A stretch of 37,998 nt of DNA from IMG/VR virus record IMGVR_UViG_2526164630_000037. One strand, given 5' to 3'. Origin of the DNA: a virus. Taxonomy: Duplodnaviria > Heunggongvirae > Uroviricota > Caudoviricetes. Shown here piece by piece: positions 18,001 to 24,000 of the stretch (its first letter is position 1; each line of letters begins with the position of its first letter). Made by a program: the position numbers.

Positions 18001-21000
18001 GGACGTCACGCATTTGTGACCCGTGAGGAACTGGTTGGTCTTAAACTCGCCCGGCGTCGAACATCGGGTGGTGCCTCATATGCACTGAATCCGGGTATTG
18101 AGATTGACAGTACTTTAATGACTGTTGATTTTCCCACAAAACCGCTGAATTTTAAGGCGACCGGTGGATTTGGCTCGGTTCTTCTTGAATGGGATATGCC
18201 TAATTATCGCGGACATTCACTGACTGAAATCTGGCGGGGTACGGAGGATGACCTTGCTGATGCAGTGCTGGTTGCCACGACGCCGGGGCAGGTTTACGGC
18301 GATCCGGTTGACCCTGGCTGGTCGGGATTTTACTGGATACGTTTTGTTAACGCGGCAGGAGTGAAAGGTCCATGGAATGCTGAAAAAGGCACTCAGGCAC
18401 AAACACAGATCGGCGTGAAGGCCATCATTGACCAGATCCGCGATGAGGCTGCAAAGTCGCCGGTTGTGTCCGAGCTGCGTAAAGAAATAAAAAACGCGCA
18501 GGGGCAGGCTGTAAAGGATGCTGCAATTAAGACAACCGAAGTTGTAGGGACTCTCAGGGAAGAAACGACAAGAACGATTGGTGGTATTGAAACCCGCATT
18601 AGCACACTGGATTCGTCAACCAGTGAATCGCTTAATGAGGTCGACAAGCGCATCACTAAATTGGATAAAGAAGGCGGTGAAGCTTTTCTTGCAATGTGGT
18701 CAAAAAAAGCGGGAGTTGATGGTATCACTGCGGGGATCGGGATTGTCGCCGGAAAAGACAGTGAAGGCAGGCCTGTAAGTCAGGTTGCAATTTCTGCGTC
18801 GCAGTTGTTTGTCTTTGACCCGAATAATCCGGATAACACAGCCTATCCGTTTGCGGTATCAGGTGGCAAGGTAGTGATCCCGAAAGCGATGATTTATGAC
18901 GCGGTGATTGAAACACTGGTGTCGCGGAAGGTTGTGGCGGATGAGGTAAAAGCCGGGGTAAGTATCACTTCGCCAGTTATCCGGAGTGCCGTTATTCAGA
19001 ACGGAAACTTTCAGGTTGATTCTCAGGGTAACCTGAATATTGGAGGCCTTTTCAGTGTTACGTCACAAGGGCAACTGACAATTCGTTACTCTAATCAGAA
19101 TGTAGGACTGGTGATCCGCAATGATAAAATTGAGGTTTATGACCAGAATGGACGACTGGCTGTTCGCATAGGCAGATTACGCTGATCAGGAGGTGAGTAT
19201 TGGAATACGGTTTTGCCATTTATAACAGAAATAACGTTAATGTTACGGGCGTGCTGACTCCAGTATTTTTCCTGGACAGATTTACAGCGGAGTCTGGCTC
19301 AAAGACGTACACTAATAAACCCGACGGGAAATCATTGCAGGCTGTATGTTGTTTATTTCCCTGGAATAATGTATTTGCGGATCGGAAAGTACCGAAGATA
19401 ACCATTAATGACAATACGGTGACGTGGTCGAATCTTGAGCAGGGTATGGGATCTTATATTTATACATTCTGGGGATAAGTGTTATGTACGGTTTGAGCAT
19501 TATGAAGCCGGATGGCAGCGTATGGATAAGTCCAGGTTTTACGCCGCAGTGTCTGATCAACAAAGGCACCATACCGGCGACTGAAAAGTCTTTTTTTAAA
19601 ACATCAATCCCGTCAGGCAAAAGTTGTTTTTTCTTTATCAGAACAGAGAAGAAGGCCGATGTCATGTACACGCATGAACAGATTGATGGATATCATGCAC
19701 TAAGGCTTCATGTAATTGTCAGGGGAACGAACCCTGGTGTTACGACGGTTTATGCTTTCGCGAATATGGTTACTCCACCTTCTGAGTATGGTATCGCCAT
19801 GTATAACCCGGACGGTGAGATGATTTATCATGGCGAAATGATGCTGCTTGACGCGAAGTTAATACCTGTTGATATCAAATTTGAAAAGGACCTTGGATAT
19901 CCATGCGCAATCATGCCTGCACTGGTCGGGTATTATAACTGGAAAAGAACTCCTTATGATCGACCGATTTATACCACATCCACTGGTGCTACAGGAAATA
20001 AAATATATTCCTGTGAGCATTATTCCGGTGGTGCAACATGGGATATTCGAAAGCCGTATATAGATAAGGTCCTGGTTATTAATACATCAGTATATGATTA
20101 GTTGAAGCGAGTCTTTAATATTCATTTAAAATGTCTAAAAAGATGTATTATTAAAAAGTTTAGCGTGTTATCTGAATACAGGATATCTTAAATGAAGAGT
20201 ATAGCAACACTGGTTGTGTGTGCAATCTCCGGGATTGCCTGTGTAAATTTATCTGCACATGCAGCAGAAGGAGAGCATACAATTTCTCTGGGGTATGCGC
20301 ACTTTCAGTTTCCGGGACTGAAGGATTTTGTAAAGGATGCGACTGCTCATAACAGGGAGACTTTCAGTCATTTCGTCAACAGAAACTACTTTTCTTCATT
20401 GGGCGAATATACAGATGGTCGGGTCAGTGGATATGAAGGCAAGGATAAAAATCCACAGGGCATTAATATCAGGTATCGCTACGAGATAACGGATGATTTT
20501 GGCGTTATCACCTCTTTTACATGGACGCGTTCTCTCACTAACTCACAGACATTTATTGATGTGCAGTCAGCCGATCATACCAGGAAGATTAAGAATCCGG
20601 CAGCTTCTGCCAGAACGGATATCAGGGCGAATTACTGGAGTCTGTTAGCGGGGCCTTCATGGCGGGTTAATCAGTACATGAGTTTATATGCGATGGCAGG
20701 GATGGGCGTTGCTAAAGTTAGCGCTGACCTGAAAATTAAGGACAATATTAACAGTAGTGGCGGATTTTCTGAAAGCAACAGCACGAAAAAAACCTCCCTT
20801 GCGTGGGCTGCAGGTGCACAGTTTAACCTGAATGAGAGTGTTACACTGGATGTGGCTTACGAAGGTTTCGGCTCTGGCGACTGGCGCACGAGTGGCGTTA
20901 CTGCTGGCATTGGCCTGAAATTCTGACCTGTATCCGGTAACCGTTTACTACCCGCTGTGATGGCGGGTTTTTTATTGCCCGTACAGGGCAAAAACCGTAA

Positions 21001-24000
21001 ATTATGCGTGGGTGCCTTTCGGCTGATGGCTGGAGGGTGAACCTGAAGGCCTGATGTGGAAAGGCCCCGAGTCAACTTAACGTTAACCCGAGGCCCTAAC
21101 ACTTCGTACCTTAAGCAAGTAGAAGGTTAGCGCCTCTCTGTAAAAGGAGTCAAGCGCTATGTCGCAAAAATCGCTTATCACCGTCACAATTTGCATGACG
21201 GTTATCTTCACCATCTGGATGTTGCACGGTTCACTGTGTGAGTTCCGGCTGAATTTGTGGGGAGCGGAGTTTGCGGCGTTCTTACAGTGTAAGCAGTAGG
21301 AAAAACGCGACGGGGACGGGAGTCCCCGTCAACTGGTTGCTGAGGTTCAGCCGATATGGCACCCGTTTCAGGTGAGAGAATGAACGATAAAATTCTCTGG
21401 TATATGCAGCGTGTTGTGAGAAATTCCCGCAACCCTGAATTTATGAATGAAGTTAAAGACGCCTGCCTTAAAAAGCAGGCGTTTTGTTTTGAGGCACCTG
21501 ATGGCTTTTTGGTGCTGCGTTCTGTGCTCAGTGCTGATGGTATCCCTTATGTTCTGGTGTTGCTGGGCGTGTGTACGGGGAGTAACAGCGTTGAGCGTTA
21601 CCTGCCGGAGGTGAAGACATTAACCCATCTGGCTGGCGGACGCTGGGCTGAGTTCCATACGGCAAGGCGGGGATTTATCCGGCTGGGAAAACGACTGGGC
21701 TTTGAGCGAATGCCGGATGATGAGGATGGCTTCATGGTGTTCAGGATAGCGGTCTGACTGCTACAGTTTTCATCATTGTGTTTAAACCAACATTGTAATT
21801 CACATTCTGACCCTGCTCCGGCAGGGTTTTTTGTTATCCAGGGGGCCATTATGGGTGGAAGTAAAGGCGGTGGTGATACCAAAGTAAAACCAACAGCAGC
21901 GCAAATAGCACAGGAAGAAGTGGCCTGGAAAGGGTGGCAGGATTACAAAAATATCCTCCGCCCGGCTGAAGATAACTTCATGGAAAAGGTCGATGACCTG
22001 AACAGTGAGCAGCAGTACGACAATATTGCTGGCACCACAAATCTGGGGTATCAGAAACAGTTTGGCGAAGCACGGAAGGAGCTTGCGGGTAATCTTGCTC
22101 AGTCCGGCGTTGACCCATCCAGTGGTCGTTTTAATGCGGTAATGAATGCGAACCAGAGTGACCAGGTAACCGGGCAGATTGACACAACCACACGGGGGCA
22201 GGTATCGCAGGCAGATAAGTATGTTGCCGGGCTACAGGATGTTGCTGCTCTCGGTTCTGGTCAGAAGGCGGATGCGTTACAGAGTTTTAACTCTCTGGCA
22301 GACAGCAGTCTGGCAAAAGCTAAATCGGATGCACAGGCGGCGTTTACGAAACAGCAGGGGCGAGCCTCTCTTGTTGGCGCTGGTCTGGGTGCGGCAGGTG
22401 CATATGCGATGCATAAGGCTGGCGGTAGCGGAGGAAGTGGCGGTGCTAAAACACCTGGCACCGGCGCTAATGCCATTCAGCATCAGGCTCAGAACTGGAG
22501 ACTGTAATTATGGAGTATGGCAAATACGAAACTCTCGCAAGGGCTGGTTATTCAGGAGCAGACCGCCCACAGGGTGACTGGCAGACGTCAGCAGCGCTGA
22601 CACGCCAACAATACGACGACTGGCGAACCAGATATTTGCCCCGCGTGGCAAGGCTGGCTGACCTTGGGGAGAACAACAGTCTGATGAATGCACAGCTTGC
22701 ACGGGTGGGAGGCCTTGCCACTTCCAGTCTCCGTACAGCGCAGATGGCGCAGGATAACCAGATGGCGAGATACGGGGTAAACCGCCCGGATAATCCCGAC
22801 AGTAATACGCTGGGGTTACGTAATGCCCTGGCAATTGCTGGCGCGAAAAATGGTATCCGTGAAGCCGAACAGGATCGCCAGATGAATATTCTGACGGGGG
22901 CTTCTGCACCGGCAAGACAGAAACTGAGTGTTGGCGGCCAACTGGTGGCAGCGTAAGGGGGCAATATGGGATACGGTTTACTGGATATTGCAAATCAGTC
23001 GCGGCGTGAGGCATTACAGGGAATAAGTGACGCAGACAGACGACGTGAAGAAATTGAGGCTGCGAACAAACAGATGGCGGCGCAACAGAAAGCGCAGAAC
23101 AAGCAGAATATCGGTACGGGCATTGGTACGGGGGCGGCTATTGGCGCATCCGTTGGTGGTCCTGTTGGTGCTGTTGCTGGAGCAGTAATTGGCGGCATTG
23201 CTGGTTCTTTGTTTTAAGGAGTGGTGAATGAGCGGATTTGCACAGGGGTTACTTGCCGGATTCAGCACCGTTGACCAGGCAATGACCCGTCGTAAGGAGC
23301 TTGGTCTGCGTGAAGCACAGCTTGCCCGGCAACAGAAAAATAACGAGCGCGATTTTGAGTTTGCGCAGTCTCAGTTTGAACATAATAAAAACGTTGATCA
23401 GCGGAACTTTGATTACAGAGCCAAAGTTGACGACCGTAATTATGCACTGAAGGAAAGGGAGTTTAACGCTAACCAGAATTACCGGAATGCGTCACTGGGT
23501 ATGGAGCAGCAGCGACTCCAGTTGCAGAAATACAACCAGCGACGGCTTGAGTATAACGATATGATTGCCCATAGCCAGCCACTAATGGAAGCGCTTGGAA
23601 AAGCAATTGAGGCTGGCGATCAGGAGGCTGCAACGCGTCTGTTCGGGCAGCTGCCAAAGGGACATCCATTAATTCTTATGTCAAACGAAGGCTATGCAGC
23701 GAAAGCGGGTCAGGCCGTGATCAACCTGCAAAAAATCTTTGGTGATAAGCCGGACATGGCGATCGATTCGCTGAATACCCCGGAAAATCTCGATGTGCTT
23801 TCCGGCGTGTTTGCCCCGGAACTACAACAGCGTATTGGCATGCCTGATTCAACCGGGGACAAAACGATAAAAGAGGCCAGGATTGGCAGTATCGTACCAG
23901 CGCAGCAGGAAGGGTACGTACTTATTGGCCTTGATCTCACATACAGCGATGGCTCCACCGCGCATAAACCTGTAACAGAATACGGCAGTGCGCACCCTGA

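Follow-up and report, generated by a model that had tools for sequence, protein, structure and literature searches.

In the R1 hok/mok/sok system, the 70-codon mok reading frame must be translated up to the hok Shine-Dalgarno sequence (PMC9841398). For the Shiga-toxin prophage Sp5, the sole hok pair reported is hokW-sokW (Takada et al., 2021; PMC8621323); the level of HokW rises after mitomycin C, HokW doubles phage release, and mutating the sokW -10 element (primer YO-421) abolished antitoxin activity (PMC8621323). At a broader scale, prophages were found to be enriched in hok, and 42 of the 45 Hok homologues assayed killed E. coli, while the introduction of the same study recalls that the chromosomal hokA, hokB and hokC loci show no post-segregational killing (Escalera-Maurer et al., bioRxiv 10.1101/2025.08.07.668861). 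The stretch analysed here, hereafter the window, comprises the 37,998 nucleotides of the Caudoviricetes record IMGVR_UViG_2526164630_000037. The initial annotation proposed that this prophage has two Hok-family loci, and both are indeed present. One, at 33959-34283 on the minus strand, is hokW-sokW, whose leader scores 113.5 bits against the Rfam hok-leader model, above the gathering score. The other, built around the ORF at 21159..21299, is distinct from it and is probably another type I toxin-antitoxin locus of the hok/sok type in 933W/Sp5-type Shiga-toxin prophages, with hok-type RNA control.

The 46-codon ORF and its ribosome-binding site are as first described: it runs on the plus strand from the ATG at 21159 to a TAG stop at 21297-21299, with the Shine-Dalgarno sequence AAGGAG at 21144-21149 and the ATG 9 nt further on. 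The assignment of its peptide, MSQKSLITVTICMTVIFTIWMLHGSLCEFRLNLWGAEFAAFLQCKQ, to the Hok/Gef family is borne out by the Pfam HOK_GEF profile (PF01848; 33.2 bits versus a gathering cutoff of 22, E 4e-8), with residues 8-44 aligned to profile positions 6-42 of 42, and the peptide also matches PHROG 251 (E 2.8e-24, 85.8 bits). Identity to R1 Hok is 28 %, and in the alignment with it all seven residues kept in >80 % of Hok peptides (M1, C16, T18, L30, C31, E32 and E41 in R1 numbering) have their counterparts, as M1, C12, T14, L26, C27, E28 and E37; C44 aligns with R1 Y48, and residues 6-22 (LITVTICMTVIFTIWML), read directly, are hydrophobic throughout. The ORF is unbroken in all 50 variants of the locus, which share 73-99 % nucleotide identity, with a median dN/dS of 0.22 (835 pairs), and relative to one clade it differs by seven synonymous and no non-synonymous changes. 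Such short ORFs are common and the first 933W annotation placed no gene at this site, as would be the case for a chance ORF in an intergenic spacer; however, this reading is refuted by the Pfam and PHROG matches, by 56 homologous proteins and by the purifying selection, and its probability is negligible. Judged from its sequence, the 46-aa product is a membrane toxin of the Hok family on which purifying selection acts.

The ORF has not escaped annotation: both RefSeq/PGAP and pharokka annotate 21159..21299, in RefSeq as the "Hok/Gef family protein" WP_000078907.1. Moreover, the 46-aa peptide is identical to entry 72_1589 of the high-abundance Hok cluster 72, which was cloned as LRP157, tested for toxicity and lies outside the three non-toxic homologues; the assay used an arabinose promoter, that is, a foreign promoter and Shine-Dalgarno sequence instead of the native locus (bioRxiv 10.1101/2025.08.07.668861). 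That study dealt with the coding sequence only, Mok, Sok and the mRNA elements being outside its analysis, and left the native RNA architecture and the absence of mok undescribed. The toxin gene is, in short, already known, and its regulatory variant is undescribed. As for its named relatives, HokA and HokE had been put forward as the nearest, of which HokA stands as the closest named homologue (46 % identity) and HokE, with only 30 %, does not. Both cysteines are hard-coded, as in K-12 HokA, which falls in 60 % cluster 93 and not in cluster 72. The best NCBIfam match is likewise the HokA model, but orthology to HokA by the NCBI rule (NF007290, equivalog) was rejected, with 38.4 bits versus a cutoff of 89. 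The cassette has reached lambdoid and P2-like prophages alike. Of 5426 complete E. coli genomes, 1675 (~31 %) carry it, and the subfamily also occurs in Shigella and Salmonella.

The hexamers suggested as the hok promoter were found in place (20975..21003, plus strand), with the -35 TTGCCC at 20975-20980, a 17-nt spacer and the -10 TAAATT at 20998-21003; a sigma-70 consensus scan of this region returned 0 sites, both hexamers being sub-threshold. The -35 hexamer is the exact 5' limit of conservation among relatives with several unrelated upstream contexts, and these relatives keep TTGCC-N17-TAnATT, 6 nt and GGGTGCC. The homology block stops at 21364, at the end of an element resembling fbi, and the promoter and fbi boundaries are both retained in at least six genomic contexts. 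A strong lom terminator lies upstream of the predicted hok promoter, and no terminator was found 3' of the fbi-like element in this phage. The locus thus delimited forms a self-contained cassette, bordered on one side by the lom terminator and on the other by the following phage gene.

The Rfam hok-leader model RF01794 matches 21010-21172 on the sense strand over its whole length (positions 1-157 of 157), with 35.6 bits and E 2e-6, short of the gathering score of 59; the beginning of this match at 21010 agrees with the leader of about 150 nt expected previously. Together with minimum free energy (MFE) and pairing in the variants, the match delimits a predicted full-length hok-type mRNA with a minimal extent of 21010..21365 (plus strand), whose 3' end is not terminator-defined. 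Its MFE is -155.5 kcal/mol (z = -6.1), and 92.0 % and 91.1 % of cells are paired in the 50 variants, versus 36-44 % in slid controls, the range being 36-40 % in those for the first figure. Cells with double changes number 145, versus 15-31 in the controls, a count that partly reflects clade structure, with a few inherited changes counted many times. Like R1 mRNA, with its tac/fbi end pairing, tac/ucb alternative, GAGG/dcb stem and protective 3' stem-loop (PMC9841398), the RNA of this locus is predicted to hold a counterpart of each.

In the full-length fold, a tac-like 5' element (21010..21027, plus strand), made of GGGUGCC at 21010-16 and CGGCUGAU at 21020-27, pairs with the fbi-like element (21347..21364, plus strand), that is, with UCAGCCG at 21347-53 and GGCACCC at 21358-64. 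This helix is 96.5 % paired in the 50 variants, and since its core is invariant, including GGCACCC, it shows no covariation; its extension stays paired through G-U changes (GC33/GU13, UG24/UA22). In the truncated fold, 21010-27 is predicted to re-pair with the nearly invariant ucb-like box GAAAGGCCCC (21059..21068, plus strand), in a helix 96.8 % paired in the variants, whereas the partner of this box in the full-length fold is GAGGCC at 21090-95. Within the latter, GAGGC (21090..21094, plus strand), when aligned with the Rfam model and with the hokW-sokW locus, takes the position of the mok Shine-Dalgarno sequence, but no start codon follows it. Its partner in both the consensus and the truncated fold is GCCUC at 21132-36, a pairing kept by 49-50 of the 50 variants. 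No part of the leader varies more than the predicted Sok target region (21095..21122, plus strand); in the full-length RNA, the 3' tail would sequester 21108-22 through the helix 21108-22/21331-46, in which two pairs have 22 double compensatory changes each (GC26/AU22, AU27/GC22).

The hok ribosome-binding site is locked in a predicted hairpin (21128..21159, plus strand), in which the anti-SD CUCU at 21136-39 faces the SD GGAG at 21146-49; the closing stem (21128-33/21154-59) is 99.7 % paired, and its changes preserve pairing via wobble. Further downstream, the consensus fold pairs a downstream box (21263..21279, plus strand) with the start codon and codons 1-6 (21159-75), in a helix that is 99.7-99.8 % paired in the 50 variants and so nearly invariant that it shows no covariation. 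The GC hairpin noted earlier at 21309-21330 (plus strand), with the stem GACGGGGAC/GUCCCCGUC, proved to be a covarying element of the hok-type mRNA, 99.8 % paired and with two pairs that have 21 and 28 double compensatory changes; exonucleolytic trimming from the 3' end presumably halts at it. According to these fold models, the mRNA around the toxin gene adopts a hok-type fold that is conserved and covarying.

The leader palindrome TTAACGTTAA had been correctly placed at 21077-21086 and forms the top of a hairpin. In each of the 49 variants compared, the antisense version of this hairpin is the stronger one, by 9-15 kcal/mol (median -22.3 vs -13.3 kcal/mol); the palindrome therefore fits a Sok-like RNA. 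Such an antisense RNA of ~65 nt is predicted on the minus strand (21050..21117), running from about 21117 to 21050, with a 5' tail of ~20 nt, a 16-bp hairpin (21061-97) whose lower stem is conserved with G-U pairs, and then CUUUCC; it folds at -32.5 kcal/mol. The R1 antisense RNA targets the leader, and its counterpart here is predicted to do the same. The putative Sok promoter (21124..21153, minus strand) has a -35 TTGACT (21153..21148), an 18-nt spacer and a -10 TAACCT (21129..21124), which is invariant in the 50 variants and matches the sokW -10 in both motif and placement. The promoter was sub-threshold in a sigma-70 consensus scan, and the U tract of the predicted terminator is weak (UUU only). 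This weakness by consensus is what might be expected of an orphan toxin, prophage cargo expressed via lom readthrough or its own promoter and controlled by mRNA folding alone. However, a function of the sense strand leaves the greater stability of the antisense hairpin unexplained, the invariant -10 is homologous to a validated one, the strong lom terminator precedes the hok promoter, and a covarying helix hides the presumed Sok target in the full-length RNA, so that an orphan toxin is very improbable.

The initial annotation saw no in-frame mok, and this stands: the frame is closed by TAA at 21141-21143, and no start codon lies between this stop and the ATG at 21159. An in-frame stop is found 18-54 nt 5' of the hok start in all 50 variants, and none of them shares a conserved upstream ORF in any frame. 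The mok reading frame is absent from the whole subfamily. Here, unlike in R1, the mok start is gone and the frame is closed by stops, while hokW-sokW has an in-frame mok of 19 codons and, in K-12, the hokA frame stays open upstream over at least 10 codons as far as an IS150 insertion, a region that bears the annotation mokA. Another Hok-family gene of E. coli K-12, hokD (relF), is also said to be without mok. It is a truncated remnant in the relBE operon that has lost sok and the fold-back elements too; unlike hokD, the 21159..21299 locus retains the whole RNA architecture.

The place of mok could be taken by a cryptic substitute, a short upstream ORF without fixed sequence whose translation opens the hok RBS hairpin as R1 mok does, candidates in the window being GTG 21056..21130 or an ATG at 21054. 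An ATG/GTG at transcript positions 45/47 is kept in nearly all variants, in many of which an upstream ORF ends ~30-50 nt from the hok start or overlaps hok out of frame; the candidate in the window stops at 21128-30, the foot of the SD hairpin, and, with the SD closed in most predicted states, some opener is needed. However, the frame, length and end of the upstream ORF vary freely among close relatives (ends at transcript positions 64 to 284), as would those of chance ORFs from a fixed start, and in the L051 group and L060 these ORFs finish 58-70 nt short of hok. In addition, the ORF start sits in paired RNA in both folds, and the conserved ATG/GTG is equally accounted for by a role in the antisense RNA tail. 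We thus regard a cryptic mok as unlikely.

By homology with R1 hok/sok and hokW-sokW, transcription would start near 21010 and yield an inert full-length RNA, whose 5' end would be freed once the 3' end has been slowly trimmed as far as the 21309-30 hairpin. The freed end would re-pair with 21059-68 and expose the antisense target, to which the constitutive, unstable Sok-like RNA would bind, so that the mRNA is silenced or destroyed; following the same models, a drop in Sok would allow Hok synthesis and depolarisation of the inner membrane. Because there is no mok, the hok ribosome-binding site would tentatively have to open by RNA refolding. In such a scheme, GAGGC at 21090-94 may capture GCCUC at 21132-36, a segment that overlaps with the anti-SD hairpin, and the capture may be undone when Sok binds. 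In silico, the probability that the SD is unpaired in the clade of this phage goes from 0.01 in the full-length RNA to 0.32 in the truncated RNA and 0.02 when blocked by Sok; after 3' truncation its median is 0.07 over 48 variants, and it is ~0 in the P2-prophage clade. This tentative refolding model would hold, in these calculations, for the clade of this phage only and is not general. A wider reading, in which a large prophage-borne Hok subfamily has dispensed with mok and gates translation purely by refolding, the former mok SD GAGGC acting as a switch that competes with the hok anti-SD and Sok tipping this switch rather than blocking a leader peptide, is possible but doubtful. If true, the published hokW deletion phenotypes would be underestimates, since Sp5/933W carries the mok-less locus as well as hokW-sokW.

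The missing mok and an SD locked in nearly all predicted states would also suit a transcribed but translationally silent copy, a hok gene that has been domesticated or is in decay, comparable to hokA, hokB and hokC on the K-12 chromosome, which are without post-segregational killing (bioRxiv 10.1101/2025.08.07.668861), with a fold persisting by inertia. Against this, the ORF is intact and under selection in the variants, several helices are maintained by compensatory changes, the unit keeps its promoter and fbi limits across genomic contexts, and the cassette has spread over both prophage types and through the complete E. coli genomes noted above, which makes a silent copy quite unlikely. The hok/sok-type reading with hok-type RNA control is preferred.

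In its RNA, the locus resembles hokW-sokW of the same prophage, with a leader starting in GGGUGC, 5'/3' complementarity, a Sok -10 TAACCT likewise placed and a 3' hairpin. At the protein level, HokW (51 aa) is a member of the HokD cluster and shares only 33 % identity with the 46-aa peptide. The antisense 5' regions of the two loci are not interchangeable in silico, with cognate pairings at -63/-56 kcal/mol versus -31/-19 kcal/mol for the non-cognate ones.

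The 46-codon ORF at 21159..21299 (+), whose product is MSQKSLITVTICMTVIFTIWMLHGSLCEFRLNLWGAEFAAFLQCKQ, lies together with its Shine-Dalgarno (SD) sequence, AAGGAG 9 nt 5' of ATG 21159, exactly where the initial annotation had placed them. The proposed membership in the Hok family was confirmed by alignment to the Hok/Gef family (Pfam HOK_GEF, PF01848; 33.2 bits vs. a gathering score of 22) and by PHROG 251 (E 2.8e-24), and all residues conserved in >80 % of Hok peptides are present, both cysteines being hard-coded. The suggested resemblance to HokA and HokE holds for the former, as no named relative is closer than K-12 HokA (46 % identity), whereas HokE falls with R1 Hok, HokB, HokC, HokD, and HokW at 26-33 % identity. 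With 38.4 bits against a cutoff of 89, the peptide fails the HokA equivalog model of NCBIfam. The window is a Shiga-toxin prophage of the 933W/Sp5 type; over the stretch carrying the ORF, its identity to 933W, VT2-Sakai, and many Stx2a phages is 99.5 %. Of 5426 complete E. coli genomes, 1675 contain related DNA, in up to 8-9 copies each. Homologues of the peptide are 46-aa proteins from E. coli, Shigella, and Salmonella; Salmonella HokST, a plasmid-borne Hok of 50 aa, is not part of this subfamily. No CDS is given at this position in the original 933W record; RefSeq/PGAP labels the gene "Hok/Gef family protein" (WP_000078907.1), and pharokka "MokW-like host killing".

The same peptide is entry 72_1589 of the Hok catalogue of Escalera-Maurer et al. 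(bioRxiv 10.1101/2025.08.07.668861), belonging to a high-abundance cluster distinct from that of HokA. There, the peptide was cloned behind an arabinose promoter and is not one of the three non-toxic homologues among the 45 tested; therefore, the overexpression experiment proposed in the initial annotation has in effect already been done. The toxin gene itself is nothing new: it had been annotated and catalogued, and its product reported as toxic. By the authors' own statement, that analysis did not extend to Mok, Sok, or the mRNA elements; what had not been described is that this locus and the entire subfamily are variants of the hok/sok design that lack mok.

The prophage does contain two Hok-family loci, as had been claimed. 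The second is the canonical hokW/mokW/sokW (33959-34283, minus strand; Rfam sok, 113.5 bits), with the hokW CDS of 51 aa at 33959..34114 (-), an in-frame mokW ATG at 34171 (-), and a leader starting at 34283 (-). The catalogue lists the same HokW peptide as entry 35_712. Takada et al. (2021) worked on this locus, the hokW-sokW of Sp5, and describe one hok pair in Sp5 (PMC8621323); their primers match from 34283 onwards, and the ORF at 21159..21299 is thus not hokW, differing in length and position. Sp5/933W carries two independent hok loci, which had not been described previously.

The two loci differ in their upstream coding capacity. At hokW-sokW, mok extends hok upstream in frame by 19 codons, whereas the frame of the hok locus under study is closed 18 nt upstream by a TAA at 21141-43, in agreement with the initial annotation, which had seen no mok-like extension. 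All 49 relatives are likewise closed by an in-frame stop 18-54 nt upstream, after which no ATG, GTG, or TTG follows. In contrast, the in-frame region upstream of K-12 hokA is open as far as the IS150 insertion. A conserved upstream ORF that might substitute for mok was not found in any frame, the frame, length, and end varying between close relatives. The GAGGC equivalent to the mok SD is retained, but solely as a partner in base pairing. A search reaching few subscription journals returned no paper on hok loci lacking mok.

The 49 distinct relatives (73-99 % nucleotide identity) also define the limits of the element. Conservation starts at the -35 hexamer of the hok promoter candidate that had been pointed out (TTGCCC, 17-nt spacer, TAAATT; 20975-21003, +) and runs to just past GGCACCC at 21358-64, while the flanks vary both upstream (lom terminator, P2-type ogr, others) and downstream (phage gene or terminator). 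Therefore, the cassette corresponds to about 20975-21365, and it is spread across lambdoid and P2-like prophages. A plain consensus promoter scan returned no site for either the hok or the antisense promoter candidate. The strong intrinsic terminator of lom (20950-20974, +; ACCCGC...GCGGGT then TTTTTT) directly abuts the -35 hexamer and thereby insulates the cassette from transcription of lom. Downstream, the annotated start of 933W L0129 (21356-21757, +), ATG 21356, falls within fbi, the 3' element pairing with the mRNA 5' end; the shorter start at ATG 21380 looks more likely, because alignment of the PHROG 610 profile (positions 1-124 of 124) begins there and this ATG has its own GAGAG-type SD. 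Relatives with 83 % identity occupy the very end of P2-like prophages, where hok lies between ogr and the host gene serS (L091, 5169-5309, in E. coli MNCRE44; L053, L058, L061, L073, L078, L081, and L082 in IMG/VR). Several viral contigs of this group stop 3 nt past the hok stop codon and, therefore, prophage callers place the boundary inside the hok transcript. Contigs assigned to Xanthomonas pisi (857 nt), a Planococcaceae MAG, and Vagococcus sp. carry (near-)identical copies (L004, L005, L007), which probably reflect enterobacterial contamination of those assemblies.

The predicted transcript displays the features of a hok-type mRNA. Rfam RF01794, in fact a model of the sense-strand hok leader, aligns over its full length to 21010-21172 (35.6 bits, E 2e-6, under the gathering score), placing the predicted mRNA 5' end 7 nt past the candidate -10. 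The 356-nt RNA has a folding z of -6.1. In the 50-sequence alignment (A2), 92.0 % of cells are paired in the full-length fold, compared with 36-40 % in controls with slid partners, and 91.1 % in the 3'-truncated fold (39-44 % in the controls); double-change cells number 145 vs. 15-31 for the full-length fold, although such counts, here and below, include inherited changes shared by clades and overstate the number of independent events. The two ends pair (21010-16 with 21358-64 and 21020-27 with 21347-53), with an invariant core and an extension kept via G-U-compatible changes, and in the truncated fold 21010-27 pairs alternatively with 21059-68. GAGGC and GCCUC form a stem (21090-94 with 21132-36), the hok SD is locked in a hairpin by the anti-SD CUCU (21136-39 against GGAG 21146-49), and the start codon with codons 1-6 pairs with 21263-79. 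The GC hairpin reported at 21309-30 is indeed present, two of its pairs showing 21 and 28 double compensatory changes. A further helix between 21108-22 and the 3' tail (21331-46; two pairs with 22 double changes each) would keep the antisense target inaccessible in the full-length RNA. In the hok stretch, the window differs from the common 933W sequence only at 21305 and 21318: A21305 (C in 49/50 variants) breaks a conserved C-G pair of the helix flanking the 3' hairpin, and G21318 is in the loop of this hairpin.

On the opposite strand, a Sok promoter is predicted at the position of the sokW promoter (TTGACT 21153..21148, 18-nt spacer, TAACCT 21129..21124, -). Its TAACCT is invariant in 50/50 variants, and mutation of this motif by Takada et al. 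(primer YO-421; PMC8621323) abolished sokW function. The predicted antisense RNA would start near 21117, with a single-stranded tail of ~20 nt followed by a 16-bp hairpin, which includes the leader palindrome noticed earlier at 21077-86, and CUUUCC. In 49/49 variants, this hairpin has a lower folding energy on the antisense than on the sense strand (median -22.3 vs. -13.3 kcal/mol; -26.5 vs. -11.9 in the window), which points to selection on the antisense transcript. Conservation of its lower stem extends to the G-U pairs, and variation is greatest in the 5' tail. In duplex predictions, each of the two antisense RNAs of the prophage seems specific for its own target (cognate, -63 and -56 kcal/mol; non-cognate, -31 and -19). 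The rival reading, an orphan toxin without Sok, has to be weighed against these features of an antisense RNA that is itself only predicted: the EDL933 RNA-seq/RIBO-seq paper lists only the Rfam sok matches, the Sakai small-gene supplements lack the peptide, and no transcript data were found for the locus.

By homology, the locus would work like hok/sok: the full-length RNA would be inert, 3' trimming would let the 5' end refold, Sok would bind the target exposed on the trimmed RNA, and Sok decay would allow Hok to be made. In R1, Hok synthesis requires mok translation up to the hok SD (PMC9841398) and, therefore, another opener is needed here. In the truncated window RNA, GAGGC could capture GCCUC, which overlaps the SD hairpin, so that the SD would open and Sok would close it again. 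Indeed, P(unpaired) of the window SD changes from 0.01 in the full-length RNA to 0.32 upon truncation and to 0.02 with the Sok target blocked. As a general property, this relay fails, the median after truncation being 0.07 over 48 variants and about 0 in the P2-prophage clade; in silico it holds for the clade of the window, where it would be a tentative opener of the ribosome-binding site. A non-conserved leader ORF acting as the opener would be a rival to the relay, although the frames and ends of upstream ORFs vary freely between close relatives. That the locus is translationally silent is hard to reconcile with a dN/dS of 0.22 (seven synonymous and no non-synonymous differences to one clade), with the compensatory changes in several helices, and with a cassette that has spread among both lambdoid and P2-like prophages.

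Textbook accounts of hok/sok control centre on coupling to mok translation. A widespread, selectively maintained mok-less subfamily shows that this coupling is not universal, and offers a natural system for asking how RNA alone opens a locked toxin ribosome-binding site. Overall, the initial annotation was right in its observation and interpretation of 20975-21335, and all the features it listed were recovered. In the only functional study of hok in a Shiga-toxin phage, hokW-sokW was deleted and treated as the only hok pair of the phage (PMC8621323); an additional, independent locus within this prophage could obscure or alter effects on the timing of lysis and on the release of phage and hence of Stx. 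Elsewhere in the prophage, the virion block downstream of the cassette contains one ORF of 2806 aa (24524-32944, +), and the Rfam sRNA-Xcc1 (RF02221) matches near the prophage end (36906-36994, -) with 69.1 bits, vs. a gathering score of 53.
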